NCBI GenBank assembly: GCA_035506255.1
Contig: DATJPS010000017.1
Span: 1-38,540 of the forward strand
DNA from: Candidatus Omnitrophota bacterium
Lineage (GTDB): Bacteria > Margulisbacteria > WOR-1 > XYC2-FULL-46-14 > WPAF01
Reading direction: 5' to 3'
DNA: 38,540 bases
Shown here: one piece after another, positions 754 through 8,720 of the stretch
Layout: every line of letters starts with the position of its first letter
How positions within the stretch are numbered: the stretch's first letter is position 1
Made by a program: the position numbers and the translations under genes
The notes under the pieces: generated by a model
The model's database searches: none
The model's input: the letters and a program-made list of their open reading frames with translations, nothing else
Told to the model about the DNA's origin: nothing

Positions 754-778
754 TTTTCGGAAGCAAGCGGAGGTGAAA

Positions 779-2554
779 ATGCGAAAATTATTTATTGTTG
801 CCATTGTTCTGACCGCATTTATCCCATCCCTGGCCAGTGCCGCCAATATCCAATTGATCCTCGATTCAATTGATGGAAGCTCGGCGATGACCGTACTGAA
901 CGGGAATACGCAGGAAGTGGCAAGGATCGATTCTTTGGGCAGGATCGGGATCGGTAAAACTCCGAGTTGGTCTCTGGACATCAACTCAACTTTAACGATA
1001 GGGGTAAATTCAAGCACCAACGCTATCGGCGGCGTCGGGGTCTATGGCACCGCGTCTTCGACCGGCGGTTCGTCCAATACCGGTGTATTCGGTTCGGCGG
1101 CATCGAATATGGGCGGTTCGGCCGGCGTTTACGGCCAAGCTACCGGATCGACGGCGCAGGTTTATGGCGTTTACGGATACGCGACCGGTGCCCAGGGCCG
1201 AGGGGTCTATGGCGCACAGCCGAATAGCGGTTATGGTGGTTATTTCATGAATTCGGGCAGTGGTTATGGCGGCTATTTTTCCAACACCAGCAGCGGAGTC
1301 GGTCTTTATGCGACTTCGACTTCGGGATACGCCGCGATATTCAATAACGGTAACGTTGGGATCGGTCTGGCCAATCCTGCCGTCACTTTCGAGGTGGGCG
1401 CGAATCATGCGCTGTCGGTGAACGCGGGCTCCGGCAATATTGGCGTTGGCACTACTGCACCGGAATTTAAACTGAGCTTAGCGTCCGACGGCGGGATCCT
1501 GGCCAAGGGGATCGTTGGAGATATCGGGAACGATACGCAAGGAACTTCACTTTCGACTTCGGGCTCCGGGGTCAGGATGATCTGGTATCCGAGGAAAGCG
1601 GCGTTCCGCGCCGGATACGTGGACGGCAGCCAATGGGACAACGCGAACGTCGGCAAGTACTCGGTCGCTCTGGGACATAATTCTCAAGCTACTTTGGAGA
1701 GCGGCATCGCTCTCGGTGTCGCGTCGAGGGCCGGTTATTGTGGCGTGGCGACCGGAGTGCTTTCGGTGGCGGGGAATATGTCGACCGCTCTTGGCTGGCA
1801 ATCTACGGCGAACGGGATGGCATCCACCGCCACGGGGATTTTGACGGCGGCGACCGGGGATTATTCCGCTGCTTTCGGTTGGTCCACCACGGCCAGCAAT
1901 CAATGCTCAGTCACCATGGGGAACAACATCACTAACAATTATGCCAACGCGCTGATGATCGGCGATAATACGCAGGATATCCTTTTAAATCCTGACGGGA
2001 ACAGCTGGCTTCAGTGCCGGCTGGGCTATTTGGGCGTCGGGACCACCGCTCCGACCGACATGCTCACCGTGGCCGGCAATGTGGTCCCGGCCTCGGATGC
2101 GATAAATACATGCGGAAAATCCGGTAAGCGATGGTACCAGATCTGGGCTTCGACCGGGACCATCCAGACCTCGGACGATCGGATCAAGGCGGGCCAAAAA
2201 GATCTGGGCAAGGGGTTGGCAGATATCGAAAAGTTAAAGCCGAAGGAATATTTCCTCCGGAACGCCGAAATGACAGGGAAGGGGATCTCGTTCAAACCGG
2301 GAGGAAAAAAGGATATCGGGCTGATCGCCCAGGAGCTGTACAAGGTGATTCCGGAGGCGGTGTACAAACCGTCCGACGAAGCGAAAGAGCTTTGGGGAAT
2401 AAATTATGAAAAGCTGATACCGGTCATGATAAAAGCGATCCAGGAAGAGCAAAAGACGGTCGCCGGGCTGCAGAAAAAAGTGGACGACCTGGCGGCGGAC
2501 AAACAAACCCTCGAATCCCGGATAAAGGCACTGGAGGCCGGCGGGCGGAAATAA
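779..2554 (+). CDS. Secreted mosaic fibre paralogue 1: signal peptide, shared N-module, Gly/Tyr-rich shaft, YadA/Hep_Hag-like head repeats, C-terminal peptidase-S74 intramolecular chaperone domain
   Basis: The track ORF is 773..2554, but I prefer the ATG at 779, which sits 6 nt after GGAGG. Signal peptide: MRKLFIVAIVLTAFIPSLASA. N-module: ANIQLILDSIDGSSAMTVLNGNTQEVARIDSLGRIGIG. Head-like region: RMIWYPRKAAFRAGYVDGSQWDNANVGKYSVALGHNSQATLESGIALG...STALGWQSTANGMASTATG. The C-terminus has SDDRIK...GLIAQELYKVIPEAV...YEKLIPVMIKAIQEEQ followed by a coiled coil. Confidence 0.85.
   Translation: MRKLFIVAIVLTAFIPSLASAANIQLILDSIDGSSAMTVLNGNTQEVARIDSLGRIGIGKTPSWSLDINSTLTIGVNSSTNAIGGVGVYGTASSTGGSSNTGVFGSAASNMGGSAGVYGQATGSTAQVYGVYGYATGAQGRGVYGAQPNSGYGGYFMNSGSGYGGYFSNTSSGVGLYATSTSGYAAIFNNGNVGIGLANPAVTFEVGANHALSVNAGSGNIGVGTTAPEFKLSLASDGGILAKGIVGDIGNDTQGTSLSTSGSGVRMIWYPRKAAFRAGYVDGSQWDNANVGKYSVALGHNSQATLESGIALGVASRAGYCGVATGVLSVAGNMSTALGWQSTANGMASTATGILTAATGDYSAAFGWSTTASNQCSVTMGNNITNNYANALMIGDNTQDILLNPDGNSWLQCRLGYLGVGTTAPTDMLTVAGNVVPASDAINTCGKSGKRWYQIWASTGTIQTSDDRIKAGQKDLGKGLADIEKLKPKEYFLRNAEMTGKGISFKPGGKKDIGLIAQELYKVIPEAVYKPSDEAKELWGINYEKLIPVMIKAIQEEQKTVAGLQKKVDDLAADKQTLESRIKALEAGGRK
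2171..2551 (+). other. Peptidase S74 (endosialidase-type intramolecular chaperone, autoproteolytic) domain of paralogue 1
   Basis: The motif S-D-D-R-I-K has Ser and Lys five residues apart, as in the Ser/Lys dyad of tail-spike C-terminal chaperone domains. It is followed by IGLIAQEL, INYEKLIPVMIKAIQE and a terminal coiled coil. Confidence 0.75.
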
Positions 2555-2576
2555 CCCGATATATTCAGATTAAAAA

Positions 2577-2585
2577 TGATATAAT
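2577..2585 (+). promoter_or_regulatory. Extended -10 promoter TGATATAAT for fibre paralogue 2
   Basis: An exact TGnTATAAT lies 31 nt upstream of the ATG at 2616. The same 10-mer, ATGATATAAT, precedes paralogues 3 and 4. Confidence 0.5.
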
Positions 2586-2609
2586 CCTCCGAAATCGACC
2601 GTTCGGAGG
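2586..2609 (+). promoter_or_regulatory. Perfect 8-bp hairpin pairing an anti-SD (CCUCCGAA) with the paralogue-2 Shine-Dalgarno (UUCGGAGG)
   Basis: cctccgaa (2586-2593), loop atcgaccg, ttcggagg (2602-2609). The start codon is at 2616. Confidence 0.35.
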
Positions 2610-2615
2610 GCATTA

Positions 2616-4655
2616 ATGAAAAGATATATCGCACTGGTCGCGTGTTTGTCGCTTTTTATTGTTTCTCACCCGATCCTTGCCGCCGATGTCAATGTCATTC
2701 TCGATAATTCCCCAGGTTCGCTGGTGATCAAGGATTCTTCGCGAAATACGGTCGCTTCTGTCGATTCCACCGGCATCGGGGATTTCTATTTACTTCACAA
2801 CCGGGCGACCGATTTCAGGCTGAGCGATAATACGCACGGCCGCGGCGATCCCGGGGCGGGGAGGGCGCTGGTGCATGCTCCGGGCAACCAGTTGACGCTC
2901 AATTATGCCGGCGACTTTACCGGAGGGACCAATATTTATGGCAGTCCGGTCTTTATCCCCAATAACGTCGGTATCGGCTCGACTAATCCGATAAGCAAGC
3001 TGGAACTTTCCGGGTCCGGAGGCGATACCGGGGTCGCGATCCGGTTCGATGAAACCTCGAACCGCCAGTGGGCCCTATATCCGAACGGAGGCATTTTCCG
3101 AATTAAGGACTTGAACGCGGGGAGTGATTATCTTACCGTTCAGGGCGGAACGGGGAACATAGGGATCGGGACGACCAATCCGCTATCGAAGATAAGCGTC
3201 AACGACAATGGCGCCGCCAATTATGGTATCTATAGTTTAGGTTCTTCTACCGGGGTCTGTGGTGTCAGTAATTCCGGTTACGGGGTATGGGGATGGTCCA
3301 GTTCCGGATTAGGGATCTACGGCTCCTCCTCTTCGGGTTTCGCCGGTTATTTTAACGGTAACAGCTATTTTAGCGGAAATGTTGGCATAGGGACGACTGC
3401 CCCGAGAGGTAAATTGGATATCTCGACCGGCGGAATGAACTCGTATATTGAATGCGGCGCCGGAAGCGTTTATTTGGGGGATTACAGTAATGTGGCGAAC
3501 AACGTATACCAGCAAATAAATGGCGACGATCCAAATTCGGGCTTTGTGTTCAAGAATGGGACGGTTCAGATCTTGAATGGAAATGTCGGCATTGGGACGA
3601 CCAATCCGGGAGCACTTCTAGAGGTGGTGGGGAACATTAAGCTCGGGTTCAATGCGCTTGGCCGGACCATACAAGGGGCCGATTCCTCCGGCTCCGGGAC
3701 CCCGCTGATCATCAGATCGGGCAGTAACACGGGAGGAAGTTATCCTGCCGGCAATCTTAGCCTGGAAGCCGGGACCAGCACTTCCGGCGGTACTTATAAC
3801 GGGAGCATACTTTTTTCGACGGCTGGAACGGAAAGGATGCGGGTCAATCGTAACGGCAATATCGGGATCGGTACCACCAATCCTTTATCTCCCCTGCATA
3901 TTTATACTTCGAATGGCGATGCCTACGCCGGACTGGTGATCCAGAAGAACGGGGCCAAGACGCTTTCAATAAACCAGGGATCGTCGAACAAGTTGAACTT
4001 TACCGAACCGGGAGTGGTCGACCTGATGACGGTCGATTTCAGCGGCCTGAGGGTAGGGATCGGCAACGCTTCCCCTTCGAGCGGCAAGTTGCAGGTCACG
4101 ACAAGTTCCGGCACGGCGATCTACGGTTCCGGTGGTGGGTTCGGGGCGGAATTGTACGGGTCGAGCACCGGGGTTTATGCTAACGGCGATACTGGTGTTA
4201 ATGCGTATGGCGCGACCTATGCCGGATATTTCCAGGGGAAATTATACGTGTCTACTCTCTCTTCCAACGGAACGGTCTATTCGAACGGGAGCATCCTGAC
4301 CAACACCAACCCGTCATCCATCAGGTATAAAAAGGATGTCAAAGACCTGCCGATCGAGACGGATAATATCCTGAAGCTGAGGCCGGTCTCATTCATCTGG
4401 AAGAACAATGGCCAGAAGGACGTCGGTCTGATCGCGGAGGAAGTGGCAAAACAGGTCAAGGACCTGACCGCCCTTAATTCGGCAGGATCGATCGAAGGGG
4501 TCAAGTATGACAAACTGCCGGTATATTTGCTGGGAGTGATCAAACAACAGCAGAAGCAGATAAATGATCAAAGCGGCGAGATTAAACAGATAAAAGCCGA
4601 AAATCAGGACCTGCAGTCACGCCTGAAGGCGCTGGAAGTCAGGCTCGCCAAATAG
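2616..4655 (+). CDS. Secreted mosaic fibre paralogue 2: signal peptide, repeated NVGIGTTNP..LE[LV] collar motifs, 64-aa shared module, Gly/Tyr-rich segments, C-terminal peptidase-S74 chaperone domain
   Basis: Signal peptide: MKRYIALVACLSLFIVSHPILA. N-module: ADVNVILDNSPGSLVIKDSSRNTVASVDSTG. There are at least six GN[VI]GIGTT[NA]P repeats. The C-terminus has SSIRYKKDVKDL...VGLIAEEV...VKYDKLPVYLLGVIKQQQ followed by a coiled coil. Confidence 0.85.
   Translation: MKRYIALVACLSLFIVSHPILAADVNVILDNSPGSLVIKDSSRNTVASVDSTGIGDFYLLHNRATDFRLSDNTHGRGDPGAGRALVHAPGNQLTLNYAGDFTGGTNIYGSPVFIPNNVGIGSTNPISKLELSGSGGDTGVAIRFDETSNRQWALYPNGGIFRIKDLNAGSDYLTVQGGTGNIGIGTTNPLSKISVNDNGAANYGIYSLGSSTGVCGVSNSGYGVWGWSSSGLGIYGSSSSGFAGYFNGNSYFSGNVGIGTTAPRGKLDISTGGMNSYIECGAGSVYLGDYSNVANNVYQQINGDDPNSGFVFKNGTVQILNGNVGIGTTNPGALLEVVGNIKLGFNALGRTIQGADSSGSGTPLIIRSGSNTGGSYPAGNLSLEAGTSTSGGTYNGSILFSTAGTERMRVNRNGNIGIGTTNPLSPLHIYTSNGDAYAGLVIQKNGAKTLSINQGSSNKLNFTEPGVVDLMTVDFSGLRVGIGNASPSSGKLQVTTSSGTAIYGSGGGFGAELYGSSTGVYANGDTGVNAYGATYAGYFQGKLYVSTLSSNGTVYSNGSILTNTNPSSIRYKKDVKDLPIETDNILKLRPVSFIWKNNGQKDVGLIAEEVAKQVKDLTALNSAGSIEGVKYDKLPVYLLGVIKQQQKQINDQSGEIKQIKAENQDLQSRLKALEVRLAK
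3000..3191 (+). repeat. Copy in paralogue 2 of the 192-bp / 64-aa shaft module (LELSGxGGDTGVAIRFDETxNRQWALYPNGGxFRIKDLNAGSDYLxxxGGTGxxGIGTTNP)
   Basis: The protein and nucleotide sequences align visibly with the tandem pair at 5140..5523 in paralogue 3. Confidence 0.8.
4314..4652 (+). other. Peptidase S74 intramolecular chaperone domain of paralogue 2
   Basis: S-S-I-R-Y-K has the Ser/Lys spacing of the autocleavage dyad. It is followed by LKLRPVSFIWK, VGLIAEEV, YDKLPVYLLGVIKQQQ and a coiled coil. Confidence 0.75.
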
Positions 4656-4678
4656 TTCGTTCGAATGTTTCTTTCTGA

Positions 4679-4687
4679 TGATATAAT
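4679..4687 (+). promoter_or_regulatory. Extended -10 promoter TGATATAAT for fibre paralogue 3
   Basis: An exact TGnTATAAT lies 36 nt upstream of the TTG start at 4723. The GGAGGG ribosome-binding site is at 4710-4715. Confidence 0.5.
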
Positions 4688-4722
4688 TCCATGAAAGAGG
4701 ATCGGCAACGGAGGGATCGATA

Positions 4723-6336
4723 TTGAACAGAAAATTTCTTGCGGCTATTGGCATGCTAACCGTGATGTTGTCCATTGTTTATGCGGCGGATGTGAACGTT
4801 GGCCTTGACAGTAAGAACGGGTCTTCCGCGCTGAACATCAAAAATTCGGATGCCAACATTATCGCGACGATCAAATCCTCCGGGTCGCTGGAAGCCGGGT
4901 GGACCGCCAAGGCGTACGGTAAATACATACTTTCCGGTGTCTCCGATCAGGGTGATGGCCTGGTCGCGGACGACACTTTTGAAAGGGTGTTCGGGTTGAC
5001 CCGGAACACCAACAATGAGATCCGCCTGCTCGGTTTTGGACCATTGACTTTTTGGAACGGTAGCGCCACCGGCACCGAAAAAATGAGGATCAAGACAAAT
5101 GGCAACGTAGGTATTGGAAATACGGATCCTGCCTGTCGCCTGGAGCTTTCGGGTGCCGGTGCGGACACGGGGGTCGCGATCAGGTTCGATGAAACGGCGA
5201 ACCGTCAATGGGCGTTGTACCCGAACGGTGGCACTTTCAGGATAAAGGATCTTAACGCCGGGAGTGATTATTTGTCGATCAAGGGAGGGACCGGCTATGT
5301 CGGCATCGGGACGACTAACCCGGTGAGCGTGCTTGAACTTTCCGGTGCCGGTGGTGATACCGGGGTTGCGGTAAGGTTCGATGAAACGGCCAACCGTCAA
5401 TGGGCGCTGTACCCGACCGGCGGCACTTTCAGGATAAAGGATCTTAACGCCGGGAGTGATTATGTGTCGGTCATGGGAGGGACCGGTTGGGTCGGTATCG
5501 GGACGACCAACCCGATCGATGTTATGCATATTTCAGACTCCAACGCGAACATAGTGTACGGAACAAGTGAAGTAATAAACAACGACGCCAAGATCGGGAG
5601 GGCCGGAGGCAACAACTATCATATCACCGGGACATTGGCCGGAGATCTTGCCATCCGTCCGGAATCGACGAAAAAGATAGTGTTTGGCACCGCTTCGACG
5701 TCCGGCAGTACCGCAACGGCCAGAATGGTCATAAGCAAGGATGGCAACATTGGGGTCGGCACTACCGCTCCCGCCTCGGTCCTTGATGTCAACGGCGACA
5801 TTAAGCTTGCCGCTACGTCAGCGCCGACAGGTGCGGCGGGGAAGATCTATTTCGATTCTACCACTAGCCGTCTTAATTACCACGATGGCTCCAAGTGGAT
5901 AGAAGTGGACCCTATGTATACCACTAAACCGACAAAATCCCTTAACACCAGCGGTTTTAGCGGAGACATTTCCAGTACAAACACTTATACTGCCAACATT
6001 GGCTCCGTGCTTGCGAACAATTCCATTATAACGACGATCATAGGGCGTTTCCATGTCTCCTGCTCGAACACGGTCAGGAACCTTTACTTTGAACTACTTG
6101 ACGGGAGTAATAATGTGCTGGTCAGCTTCATTTGCCCGAACAGTACCTATATGAGCGATTATTCCGGCCTCTCGTTTTGCGTGCCTTGGGGATTCACCTA
6201 TCAATTGCCCATTCCCGTTTATGTAGCCAGTGGTAACCAGATCAAGATCCGAATATCCCAATACGGAACAACGTACGGAGCTGCTACTGGTATTTGTACC
6301 GGAGCCACCGTGAATTATATCGAACTTCCGCTGTAA
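4723..6336 (+). CDS. Secreted mosaic fibre paralogue 3: signal peptide, N-module, two tandem 64-aa shaft modules, conserved neck, divergent C-terminal tip ending YIELPL
   Basis: TTG start 7 nt after GGAGGG. Signal peptide: MNRKFLAAIGMLTVMLSIVYA. N-module: ADVNVGLDSKNGSSALNIKNSD. Neck: VLDVNGDIKLAATSAPTGAAGKIYFDSTTSRLNYHDGSKWIEVDPMY. The tip ends ...YQLPIPVYVASGNQIKIRISQYG...VNYIELPL. Confidence 0.85.
   Translation: MNRKFLAAIGMLTVMLSIVYAADVNVGLDSKNGSSALNIKNSDANIIATIKSSGSLEAGWTAKAYGKYILSGVSDQGDGLVADDTFERVFGLTRNTNNEIRLLGFGPLTFWNGSATGTEKMRIKTNGNVGIGNTDPACRLELSGAGADTGVAIRFDETANRQWALYPNGGTFRIKDLNAGSDYLSIKGGTGYVGIGTTNPVSVLELSGAGGDTGVAVRFDETANRQWALYPTGGTFRIKDLNAGSDYVSVMGGTGWVGIGTTNPIDVMHISDSNANIVYGTSEVINNDAKIGRAGGNNYHITGTLAGDLAIRPESTKKIVFGTASTSGSTATARMVISKDGNIGVGTTAPASVLDVNGDIKLAATSAPTGAAGKIYFDSTTSRLNYHDGSKWIEVDPMYTTKPTKSLNTSGFSGDISSTNTYTANIGSVLANNSIITTIIGRFHVSCSNTVRNLYFELLDGSNNVLVSFICPNSTYMSDYSGLSFCVPWGFTYQLPIPVYVASGNQIKIRISQYGTTYGAATGICTGATVNYIELPL
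5140..5523 (+). repeat. Tandem duplication (2 x 192 bp, 2 x 64 aa) inside paralogue 3
   Basis: Unit 1 is 5140..5331 and unit 2 is 5332..5523. The peptides are nearly identical: LELSGAGADTGVAIRFDETANRQWALYPNGGTFRIKDLNAGSDYLSIKGGTGYVGIGTTNPVSV and LELSGAGGDTGVAVRFDETANRQWALYPTGGTFRIKDLNAGSDYVSVMGGTGWVGIGTTNPIDV. Confidence 0.9.
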
Positions 6337-6456
6337 AGGATCCCGGCGAACACTACCGTCGGCGTCAGGCTGACGCAGGTGGGCGCTTCCATCTATATGC
6401 TGGCCTATCTCTATATTGACCGTTTTTCGTTGCAATATATAGAATTGCCGCTCTAA
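6337..6456 (+). pseudogene. Orphan 3' cassette: 39 codons plus stop encoding the last strands of an LPL-type tip (…IPANTTVGVRLTQVGASIYMLAYLYIDRFSLQYIELPL*), in frame directly behind the paralogue-3 stop codon
   Basis: My translation of 6337..6453 gives RIPANTTVGVRLTQVGASIYMLAYLYIDRFSLQYIELPL, followed by TAA at 6454-6456. It matches the family pattern [LF]PIP..V..G..I...I......Y[IM][EA]LPL seen at the ends of paralogues 3, 4 and 5. It has no start codon or ribosome-binding site of its own. Confidence 0.65.
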
Positions 6457-6470
6457 ACGCCATTTTTCTA

Positions 6471-6479
6471 TGATATAAT
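6471..6479 (+). promoter_or_regulatory. Extended -10 promoter TGATATAAT for fibre paralogues 4-5
   Basis: An exact TGnTATAAT lies 30 nt upstream of the ATG at 6509. The GGGAGA ribosome-binding site lies just before the start. Confidence 0.5.
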
Positions 6480-6508
6480 TGCGCCAAGATTTTTCCTGGG
6501 AGAATGAA

Positions 6509-7219
6509 ATGAAAAAATTCGCGTTGGCTATCATACTGGTCATCCTTGCCGCCGTATCCGCTTTCTCTGCTAATTTAAAGATGATCCTAGATTCGAACGA
6601 TGGCAGCTCCGCGTTCCTGGTACAGGACAACACCTCCAGGGAAGTCGCGAGGATAAACTCGCTGGGAAATGTGGGCATTGGCACTTCGTTGCCGGTATCG
6701 ACGCTGGAAGTGAACGGCGATATTAAGCTGGCATCGATGTCGGCCCCCTCCGCCGCACCGGGCAAGGTCTATTTCGATTCTACCTCCAGCCGATTGAATT
6801 ACCATGACGGGACCAAATGGATAGAGGTCGACCCTGCCTATAGCACAAGAGAAGTAAAAGATTATGTTATCCAGGCTCTATATACTGGGGCCGGGCCTAC
6901 GGCTTACGATATTGCCACGCCCGCAAGAGATATCGTAATTACGGAGATGTCGATGTTGACGAGCGTTGGCGACATATGGATCAACAACAGCACAACCATC
7001 GAAGCGACTCTCTATGTGGGTGGGGTAAGGAAGGCTTATTTGAATTATTATTTCCAGTACAATACTTACATGGATCCGATCAAAGGTCCGCCTCCGCTGG
7101 TCTTTCCTATACCGATCAAGGTCAGTGCGGGGACCGATATCTCGATGACGATCTTAGGGTCGCATACACATAATAGGGCAGATGAGTTCCGTCTCAAATA
7201 TATGGAACTGCCGTTGTGA
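6509..7219 (+). CDS. Secreted fibre paralogue 4 (minimal form): signal peptide, N-module, neck and LPL-type tip with no shaft modules
   Basis: The track ORF starts at 6479, but I prefer the ATG at 6509 (MKKFALAIILVILAAVSAFSA). N-module: NLKMILDSNDGSSAFLVQDNTSREVARINSLGNVGIGTSLPVSTLEVNG. It runs straight into the neck DIKLASMSAPSAAPGKVYFDSTSSRLNYHDGTKWIEVDPAY. The tip ends FPIPIKVSAGTDISMTILG...LKYMELPL. Confidence 0.85.
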   Translation: MKKFALAIILVILAAVSAFSANLKMILDSNDGSSAFLVQDNTSREVARINSLGNVGIGTSLPVSTLEVNGDIKLASMSAPSAAPGKVYFDSTSSRLNYHDGTKWIEVDPAYSTREVKDYVIQALYTGAGPTAYDIATPARDIVITEMSMLTSVGDIWINNSTTIEATLYVGGVRKAYLNYYFQYNTYMDPIKGPPPLVFPIPIKVSAGTDISMTILGSHTHNRADEFRLKYMELPL

Positions 7220-7239
7220 TCCGATAGGGAGGGCATAAC

Positions 7240-8676
7240 ATGAAAAAATATGTTTTGATCGTTGTGCTGATCGGTTTAGCCTCTGCCTCCGCTTTTTCCG
7301 CCAACGTAAAGATGATATTGGATTCTTCGGACGGCAGTTCTGCGCTATCGATCCAGGATAAGACCTCAAAGGAAGTGGCAAGGGTTGATTCTTCTGGCAG
7401 AGTGGGGATTGGGACGACTGCTCCGTTATATGGTCTTGATGTCAGTACGACCCTGACGCGGGGGATCAATTCGGTCTCAAACGCTTACGGCGGCTACGGC
7501 GTTTATGGCACAGCCTCAGATACTTCGGCAGTAGGGCCGAATTACGGAGTCTACGGGTCCGCGGCGGCCAATTTTAACGGATCGGCCGGCGTGTACGGCG
7601 TTGCCACCGGTTCCCCGAGCCAGGTCTACGGTGTTTACGGTTCGGCGGGCGGTCTCAGCGGCCGCGGGGTATTCGGTACGGAATCGGGCGGCGGTTACGG
7701 CGGTTATTTTTTAAACTCCAGCAGCGGCGTAGGGTTGTATGCTGCTTCCACTTCGGGCTATGCCGCGGTCTTCCCCTCGGGCAATGTCGGTGTAGGGACG
7801 GCGAGCCCTAGCAACCTGCTTACCCTGCAGGGATCCGCGACCCCTCAGCTGATGATCACCCAGCCATCGGCAACCGATGCCCTGACCCTGGGTTACAATG
7901 AGGCGTCTTACGCTTATATGGCCACCCTTGGCTCGCATCCGCTGGCACTGTTCACGAACAATCTAGAACGGCTGCGCGTAACCTCGGCCGGCAATGTGGG
8001 TATCGGAACGACCGGACCAGGAGAAAAGCTGGAGATCGTCGGGAACGCAAAGATCACTTCCCTGTCCACTTCGTCTAATGTGACGATGAGCAACGCGATC
8101 ACCGCGGCCGGGAACTACGGACTTTCCGTAATAATAGACGGAGTGGAGCGGGGGAGCGTCGACCGGTTGGGGAACGGTTATCTTTCGAACACGCTCACGC
8201 TCGCATCGGTTGCGGCACCGACCGCCGCCACCGGCAAGATCTATTTCGATTCGACCGTCCATCGGCTTAAATATTACGACAGCACCAAATGGATCGAGAT
8301 GGACCCGGCCTATACCAATAATTCACTTCAATCGACACCGATGTATTCCGTTTCGGGGACCAATACCGCCAACATGAGCATGCTCACTCCAGGTACTGAT
8401 ATAATAATAACCGGGATCGCCGGCAACACTGACTGGTTGACCAACCAGTGCCCGGAATACCTGATCGAACTTTATAACGGGAGCACGAGCTATGTCAGCA
8501 TTTATGTGCCGGATGACCGGGGCGATTACGAATATTCTCTACCGATACCGGTGAGGGTCCCGTCCGGTACCGCGATCTCGGCCAGGATCACCGCCAAAGA
8601 TTACACCGGCGCGAACTATCTCGGGACCTACGCCACGCTGCGCTGCACGATGCGATATATAGCTCTGCCTTTATAA
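7240..8676 (+). CDS. Secreted mosaic fibre paralogue 5: signal peptide, N-module, Gly/Tyr-rich shaft (as in paralogue 1), collar repeats, neck and LPL-type tip
   Basis: GGGAGGG ribosome-binding site, 20-nt gap after paralogue 4. Signal peptide: MKKYVLIVVLIGLASASAFSA. N-module: NVKMILDSSDGSSALSIQDKTSKEVARVDSSGRVGIGTTAP. Shaft: GVYGTASD...GVYGSAAANFNGSAGVYGVATGSPSQVYGVYGS...GYGGYFLNSSSGVGLYAASTSGYAAVF. Neck: GKIYFDSTVHRLKYYDSTKWIEMDPAY. The tip ends LPIPVRVPSGTAISARIT...MRYIALPL. Confidence 0.85.
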   Translation: MKKYVLIVVLIGLASASAFSANVKMILDSSDGSSALSIQDKTSKEVARVDSSGRVGIGTTAPLYGLDVSTTLTRGINSVSNAYGGYGVYGTASDTSAVGPNYGVYGSAAANFNGSAGVYGVATGSPSQVYGVYGSAGGLSGRGVFGTESGGGYGGYFLNSSSGVGLYAASTSGYAAVFPSGNVGVGTASPSNLLTLQGSATPQLMITQPSATDALTLGYNEASYAYMATLGSHPLALFTNNLERLRVTSAGNVGIGTTGPGEKLEIVGNAKITSLSTSSNVTMSNAITAAGNYGLSVIIDGVERGSVDRLGNGYLSNTLTLASVAAPTAATGKIYFDSTVHRLKYYDSTKWIEMDPAYTNNSLQSTPMYSVSGTNTANMSMLTPGTDIIITGIAGNTDWLTNQCPEYLIELYNGSTSYVSIYVPDDRGDYEYSLPIPVRVPSGTAISARITAKDYTGANYLGTYATLRCTMRYIALPL

Positions 8677-8689
8677 TTGAATTAAATAA

Positions 8690-8720
8690 AAAGGGGAAAG
8701 GATAAAATCCTTTCCCCTTT
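8690..8720. terminator. Bidirectional intrinsic terminator between the convergent fibre array and tsf
   Basis: A 13-bp perfect stem, aaaggggaaagga (8690-8702) paired with tcctttccccttt (8708-8720), with loop taaaa. There is a T-rich run on the tsf side and A/T-rich flanks on both sides. Confidence 0.7.

Follow-up and report, generated by a model that had tools for sequence, protein, structure and literature searches.

Mosaic fibres in an Omnitrophota genome

The superfamily of mosaic adhesive trimers (MAT) in Bdellovibrio, named by Caulton et al. 2024, consists of trimeric surface fibres (PMC10769870). In strain HD100, 13 MAT fibres end in an S74 domain and 8 (NS74) in other tips, namely new beta-sandwiches, TNF-like domains and a C-type lectin (PMC10769870). 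The NS74 tips fold independently and were apparently swapped in evolution, and the tip of Bd2439 binds a prey glycan (PMC10769870). Here we describe fibre genes in a 38,540-nucleotide (nt) stretch of a Candidatus Omnitrophota metagenome-assembled genome (MAG; contig DATJPS010000017.1), hereafter called the window. Its first 8.7 kb hold an island of five tandem genes, all on the + strand, whose products are secreted fibre proteins rich in Gly and Thr (paralogues 1 to 5). At the C-terminus of paralogues 3, 4 and 5 stands a conserved neck with a divergent tip behind it. This tip is a new unnamed domain family within a known kind of mosaic fibre system, the one first described in Bdellovibrio. With a probability of roughly 60%, we consider the neck and tip to be a self-contained, chaperone-independent and exchangeable adhesive tip cassette of MAT-like fibres, in a cell that probably depends on a host or prey. 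Omnitrophota have been argued to be mostly predators or parasites (PMC10066038). A literature search for this tip or for MAT fibres in Omnitrophota gave nothing beyond one entry in Supplementary Table S3 of PMC10769870, which names a Candidatus Omnitrophica bacterium as the source of an S74-like MAT protein.

The window fibres share the main traits of the Bdellovibrio MAT fibres. They are secreted, their N-terminal end is conserved, and their beta-helical stalk carries the GxGTxxP capping motif; the C-terminus of a paralogue is S74 or else a swapped beta-sandwich tip, and the fibres form multigene families with chimeric tips. When paralogues 2, 3 and 4 were compared with the PDB by phmmer, essentially only Bdellovibrio bacteriovorus Bd2133, Bd1334, Bd3182 and related chains were found (E 1.8e-9 to 1e-3), in alignments running over GNVGIGT.aP...L.V repeats. 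The stalk of paralogue 3 matched Bd2133 with E 1.8e-9 and 8oml with E 4.5e-8, and that of paralogue 2 matched Bd2133 (PDB 8ond) with E 1.7e-7. Judged by inspection, all five paralogues have a Sec-type signal peptide, in which a basic n-region and a hydrophobic core precede a cleavage site of the A-x-A type. An N-terminal motif, A[AN]v.v.LDS..GSS, with a length of ~35-45 amino acids (aa), is likewise common to all five. Unlike in Bdellovibrio, the tip always follows a dedicated conserved neck and a DPAYTT linker, and its family is unrelated by sequence to the solved MAT tips. The fibres are also shorter (236-537 aa against ~600-1100 aa), and the host phyla are Omnitrophota and Margulisiibacteriota.

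The neck and tip module

All three tip-bearing genes have the same order of parts. Paralogue 3 (4723-6336, + strand, 537 aa) comprises a signal peptide, a stalk with two 64-aa QxW/ricin-B-like inserts, the neck DIKLAATSAPTGAAGKIYFDSTTSRLNYHDGSKWIEVDPMY at 5797-5919 and a 138-aa tip at 5920-6333, which ends in YIELPL and matches the tip profile with E 1.3e-34. Paralogue 4 is a minimal form (6509-7219, + strand, with the frame open from a TTG at 6479). Counted from the ATG of NCBI VMD02_00845, a "hypothetical protein", it has 236 aa and is made up of signal peptide, N-terminal motif, one GIGT repeat, neck (6719-6841) and a 125-aa tip (6842-7216). Paralogue 5 (7240-8676, + strand, 478 aa) has a Gly/Tyr-rich stalk, a neck (8200-8313) and a 120-aa tip (8314-8673) that ends in YIALPL (tip profile E 1.1e-31). 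The motif [LF]PIP[VI].V.[SA]G..I stands at 6205-6243, 7103-7141 and 8539-8577.

A sequence-only reading of the window had described the conserved neck, the divergent tip, the PIP motif and the terminal Y[IM][EA]LPL of these paralogues, and our alignment agrees with it exactly. The necks are where that reading had seen them, with starts displaced by up to 18 nt (5797 in place of 5779, 6719 in place of ~6704, 8200 in place of ~8203). Pairwise identity among the three copies is 68-79% in the neck and 22-38% in the tip. Nevertheless, the tips are related far above chance, each copy matching the tip-only profile with E 1e-30 to 1e-35. At the DNA level, similarity between copies was detected only in the neck part of the module (119 nt, 73-74% identical; repeat family D2/D3). 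Outside the neck, conservation is restricted to DIIIT at the start of main strand 3, [FL]PIP[IV]KV in strand 6 and YIELPL at the end of strand 8. We also saw that an Asp-Pro pair at the neck-tip junction (5908-5913, 6830-6835 and 8302-8307) is near-invariant in the 28-sequence family (A5; D31 and P32).

The S74-ended and the tip-ended C-termini part directly after the last GIGTT.P...L.V.G repeat. As had been proposed, the two endings exclude each other: paralogues 1 and 2 have both a PF13884 match and the S[DS]xxxK motif, while paralogues 3-5 have neither. The module thus takes the same C-terminal position on the same scaffold as Peptidase_S74 (PF13884), but the tip shows no sequence similarity to it and no S-D-x-x-x-K motif. 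It is predicted to be all-beta and retained, whereas S74 is a cleaved helical/beta chaperone. The idea of a second way to cap the same fibre scaffold was therefore correct, although not new, since it is the published NS74 situation (PMC10769870).

The sequence-only reading had assigned the tip to no family, and no library that we searched places it in a named one. Neither Pfam (E <= 1) nor NCBIfam nor PHROGs gave a match, and a profile of 28 tip sequences found nothing below E 0.3 among the PDB sequences; a C1q/TNF profile match was absent from both the Pfam and the PDB search at these thresholds. We based the family census on a full HMMER scan; a word-indexed homologue search gave just 2 relatives. 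The tip-only profile, run against 1.84 billion representative proteins, returned 44 matches with E <= 1e-3, about 30 of which are full-length C-terminal tips. Ten of their clusters were looked up: nine have a single member and one has four. One of these clusters comes from a Margulisiibacteriota MAG, and VMD02_05690 comes from the window's own MAG. A pattern scan of 185,579 GTDB species genomes found the neck-tip module in 1 genome. In 50,697 GenBank phage records searched with tblastn the tip was not found and only the neck matched (E >= 0.3), and the tip had no match in IMG/VR.

Within this small family the neck and tip go together. The neck is present in 26 of the 26 inspected tip-bearing proteins that have N-terminal sequence, and the N-terminally truncated P0007 keeps part of it. 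The module rides on at least three unrelated N-terminal architectures, and minimal members of 227-239 aa have almost no stalk. There are at least four copies in the window MAG and at least six, on different stalks, in the related AlinenSediments_bin-4880.

For the paralogue 3 tip, AlphaFold2 with 5 sequences returned a mediocre all-beta model with a predicted local distance difference test score (pLDDT) of 69. With 28 sequences, the model of paralogue 4 reached pLDDT 87.5 and a predicted template-modelling score (pTM) of 0.74, and it shows three short neck strands (pLDDT 87-91), a linker and eight main strands. The sequence-only reading had called for a fold comparison with known knobs. Both models led Foldseek to jelly rolls, with trimeric fibre knobs among the best neighbours, although all matches were weak. 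Besides viral capsid proteins, they included the receptor-binding domains of lambda gpJ and TM4 gp23, the Sf6/HS1 needle knob, the TNF-like lectin BC2L-C-Nt, 4-1BBL and C1q-like protein 3. Phage proteins annotated as 'host specificity J', 'C1q domain' and collagen-repeat were matched as well. BC2L-C-Nt (2WQ4) is among the best compact fold matches both of our tip and of the NS74 tip Bd2734, which is TNF-like, as is Bd2439; for the Bd2734 tip it is the best match reported. Taking a template-modelling (TM) score of at least 0.5 as the mark of a shared fold, BC2L-C-Nt reached 0.50-0.56 when the first model (pLDDT 69) was used but 0.42-0.49 when the better one was; 4-1BBL and C1q-like protein 3 each gave 0.44-0.46. 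From these models we conclude that the tip is a jelly-roll-type beta-sandwich, predicted to be autonomous, without a close structural relative, and that it may plausibly belong to the TNF/C1q fold.

Two further groups of proteins come close to the tip. The tip profile catches P0014 and P0017, proteins with tandem repeats of the Ig-like Kre9/KNH domain (PF10342), and hhalign gave a profile-profile hint (84.7% probability over 67 columns), aligning IEL..G and PIP.kV..G..i.I. In contrast, the Pfam Kre9_KNH model has no match to the window proteins at E <= 1, the tip is ~30 aa longer, and its neighbours in the fold searches are jelly rolls rather than Ig domains. With phage fibre knobs (Sf6/HS1 needle knob, lambda gpJ, C1q/collagen-like) the tip shares the form of a similar-sized C-terminal beta-sandwich, and the neck shares a weak motif with tail-fibre PHROG families. 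Here the differences are a TM score of 0.4-0.5 at 8-16% identity, and genes that are chromosomal, cellular and signal-peptide-bearing.

More distant relatives of the tip lack the neck. The five closest tips (A2) aligned with neckless tandem or single domains (A6) at an hhalign probability of 97.9% (E 6e-13). One protein, P0029 (L005, 2143-3354), has three tandem copies of a distant tip relative; on its phage contig the gene is flanked by those of a large terminase and a minor tail protein. The domain superfamily thus extends into phage structural modules. The neighbouring minor tail protein (3351-5078 of the same contig) itself contains a weak tip-like stretch (E 0.0016).

Exchange of the module and competing explanations

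The module has changed stalks. P0008, a 495-aa protein of bin-4880, is 53% identical to paralogue 5 in the stalk, 62% in the neck and 32% in the tip. Compared with paralogue 3, the values are 34%, 85% and 54%, respectively. P0008 therefore combines a paralogue-5-like stalk with a paralogue-3-like neck and tip, which shows that neck and tip moved jointly, as a unit, onto another stalk.

A second trace lies directly behind paralogue 3. In frame after its stop codon stand 39 codons on the + strand (6337-6456) for RIPANTTVGVRLTQVGASIYMLAYLYIDRFSLQYIELPL and then a stop. They represent a fourth tip, of which only the decayed 3' end is left. The fragment ends in FSLQYIELPL and, among 809 six-frame fragments, was detected by hmmsearch with E 7.3e-7 over positions 96-132 of the 132 in the profile. 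It is at most ~45% identical to any known tip and is absent from the relative's syntenic locus. We read it as the probable scar left when the present tip took the place of an older one; no further tip remnants were found in ten related loci. Two sigma-70-like promoter matches (6416-6474), upstream of paralogue 4, fall within the remnant.

The analysis shows secretion signals, stalk homology, a predicted autonomous beta-sandwich, the cassette exchange, the remnant and the rarity of the tip, and these support the reading of the module as an exchangeable adhesive tip. In the mechanism that we propose, the last GIGTT.P...L.V.G capping repeat of the stalk would lead into the three-strand neck (G-K-[IV]-Y-F-D-S...R-L-x-Y-x-D-G-x-K-W-I-E), the D-P-A-Y-T-T linker and a ~125-aa eight-stranded jelly-roll-type sandwich. 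This domain would fold without the S74 chaperone, and three copies would cap a trimeric fibre as its distal knob. A canonical jelly roll would put the strands of DIIIT, [FL]PIP[IV]KV and YIELPL in one sheet (BIDG), which is the trimer interface in TNF-like proteins. The three invariant motifs would form the core and the interface to the other subunits or the neck. The rest of the surface, varying between paralogues, would determine which glycans or proteins of a host or prey cell are bound, and new specificities would arise by exchange of the neck and tip unit between stalks and not by rapid local mutation. By analogy with the described fibres we infer a trimer that binds a ligand; that the tip is distal and takes part in attachment between cells is likewise inferred.

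Several results weigh against this reading. The matches of the predicted fold to the PDB and BFVD are only weak jelly-roll matches (E 1e-3 to 6e-6, TM ~0.4-0.55), and none of the solved Bdellovibrio MAT tips is among the best 50 Foldseek matches. The conserved motifs are only presumed to lie at the subunit interface. Paralogue 4 has only ~50 residues between signal peptide and neck, too short for the domain of ~130 aa, conserved and rich in beta structure, that MAT proteins carry as a defining feature immediately after the signal peptide (PMC10769870); because that domain cannot fit, we call the window fibres "MAT-like" rather than MAT. Furthermore, the tip had been expected to be hypervariable and diversifying, and this was not borne out. 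In the only orthologue pair at hand, paralogue 5 and a 480-aa gene of the relative, the tip is 76% identical with a non-synonymous divergence (dN) of 0.16 and the stalk 71% identical with a dN of 0.20, so that the tip does not evolve faster than the stalk. When the two related genomes are compared, synonymous divergence (dS) turns out to be saturated (0.8 to >2, or undefined), which makes dN/dS unusable for positive selection. Nor is variability confined to loops, a point that the sequence-only reading had raised for checking: in the entropy profile, column entropy is 2.58 in strands and 2.53 in loops (p = 0.46).

The main rival holds that the module is chiefly a folding and trimerisation cap, an uncleaved S74 substitute that nucleates and locks the C-terminal end, and that binding takes place elsewhere, in the QxW/ricin-B-like inserts or in stalk clefts. 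A tip that changes no faster than the stalk between orthologues fits such a cap, as do its location exactly at the position of S74 and a conservation made up of short core motifs while strands and loops drift alike. Other surfaces for binding exist as well: paralogues 2 and 3 carry RicinB_lectin_2-like inserts, and the beta-helix surface of S74-type MAT fibres has a cleft similar to the one in which the P22 tailspike binds O-antigen (PMC10769870). We nevertheless consider this explanation unlikely. The minimal members of the family leave the tip as the only candidate functional surface, several distinct and cassette-exchanged tips per genome are hard to explain by capping, and the NS74 tips of Bdellovibrio are binding domains (PMC10769870).

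A bolder scheme seems improbable to us. In it, promoterless partial tips such as that at 6337-6456 would be silent donors which recombine at the neck and YIELPL ends and so program host or prey specificity, while neck and tip would be a new class of autonomous trimerising cap replacing S74; in addition or instead, self-cleavage at Asp-Pro would release the folded tip. Asp-Pro bonds are chemically labile, and some self-processing modules use them. We found no evidence of cleavage at the neck-tip Asp-Pro in this analysis. A diversity-generating retroelement was considered separately and rejected, as no near-identical repeat covers any tip and there is no template/variable repeat pair. The ten large window open reading frames submitted to Pfam included no reverse transcriptase.

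It is also conceivable, with slightly lower probability still, that the C-terminal module is the cell-proximal anchor in or on the cell's own envelope, like the translocator of trimeric autotransporters, and that the N-terminus is distal. Paralogue 1 has YadA_head repeats, and many tips end in hydrophobic or aromatic residues (ELPL, ELPF, DFPF, EWPY), which resembles the beta-signal of outer-membrane proteins. However, the N-terminal motif is the end conserved in all five paralogues and the C-terminus is variable, as in MAT fibres, and P0034 and P0037 extend beyond ELPL. The fold searches gave soluble jelly rolls and no membrane barrels, and an outer-membrane barrel anchor was rejected on these matches. 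Finally, that the fibre genes are prophage or phage-remnant tail-fibre genes and not cellular adhesins is very improbable, for although PHROG tail-fibre families (phrog_9942, 18345 and 8309) match the stalks and, weakly, the neck, and distant tip relatives stand beside a terminase on a phage contig, each of the five proteins has a signal peptide, the neighbourhood is free of phage genes (its flanks are polA, tsf, rpsB and relA, in an arrangement kept in a relative), and the tip is unmatched in the phage records and IMG/VR.

If the module is an exchangeable adhesive tip, it bears on the lifestyle of these bacteria. Next to nothing is known of the hosts or prey of Omnitrophota, and fibres with swappable tips are concrete candidates for recognition of partner cells. 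Recombinant tips could serve as probes for such cells or their glycans. Our results extend the mosaic-fibre principle of Bdellovibrio to Omnitrophota and Margulisiibacteriota and enlarge the catalogue of fibre tips by an unnamed domain family that has its own neck adaptor. The engineering of trimeric fibres may also profit from a capping unit that by nature would need no chaperone.

Genomic setting and remaining features

The island is flanked on the left by the 5' end of polA, which starts at ~646 on the minus strand, and on the right by the convergent tsf and rpsB. The remaining genes of the window are housekeeping genes, namely relA/spoT, pnp, lnt, an LptC-like gene and comEC; the Pfam scan for flanking genes covered the same ten open reading frames. 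Given these surroundings, the five-fibre stretch is a chromosomal island in an Omnitrophota MAG and not part of a phage. The order polA-fibres-tsf is kept in bin-4880 (locus L008), which has 4 fibre genes there and also holds the 480-aa orthologue of paralogue 5. The stretches to be compared are 1538-6465 of L008, with its four fibre genes, and 773-8676 of the window, with five fibre genes and the tip remnant. In L008, a 563-aa gene after the first S74 fibre has another C-terminal domain to which we assigned no identity. Between the end of paralogue 5 and the convergent end of tsf lies an unstranded palindromic hairpin (8690-8720) with a perfect 14-bp stem and T/A runs on both sides, which looks like a bidirectional terminator that closes the fibre island.

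The first two fibre genes, both on the + strand, lack the neck-tip module and end in the S74 chaperone. Paralogue 1 (773-2554, 593 aa) combines a signal peptide and a stalk of GIGT repeats with YadA_head repeats (E 1.4e-7) and, at its C-terminus, S74 (Peptidase_S74 E 3.4e-9) with the motif SDDRIK at 2171-2188. The YadA_head repeats are located at 1640-1980 (residues ~290-400), where the NCBIfam YadA_autotrans region also matches. This S74-ended fibre therefore combines head repeats of trimeric autotransporters with a phage-type chaperone in one protein. In paralogue 2 (2616-4655, 679 aa), Peptidase_S74 matched with E 7.7e-9 and the motif is SSIRYK at 4314-4331.

The 64-aa module of the stalks, which includes GVAIRFDETANRQWALYPNGGTFRIKDLNAGSDY, occurs once in paralogue 2 (2967-3182) and twice in paralogue 3 (5107-5322 and 5299-5514). 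It has a QxW-like motif, matches Pfam RicinB_lectin_2 with E 3.2e-6 and corresponds to DNA repeat D1. It may be a lectin-like stalk insert, and the three chains of a trimer could jointly mimic a beta-trefoil.

Among the other carriers of neck and tip, a second N-terminal architecture has the pattern SVRTGTI…TFPTAYEDEINGGYK.V…GMLCYV….YRL..G.W and holds a hairpin motif that resembles the neck. It is found in P0011, P0018, P0019 and P0025, at L009 216-1469 and at L010 190-1428, and VMD02_05690 is one such gene. In two genomes (L001, 8395-10245, and L007, 7399-8886), the tip-bearing fibre gene is found upstream, at a distance of a few genes, of a secreted protein that belongs to another uncharacterised family and whose N-terminus reads AGI.VG.GSTLDA.TA.I.VPG…G.IQLTG.W. 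The first of these loci also encodes an SLH-domain protein and small coiled-coil proteins in which KKVDGLD is repeated.

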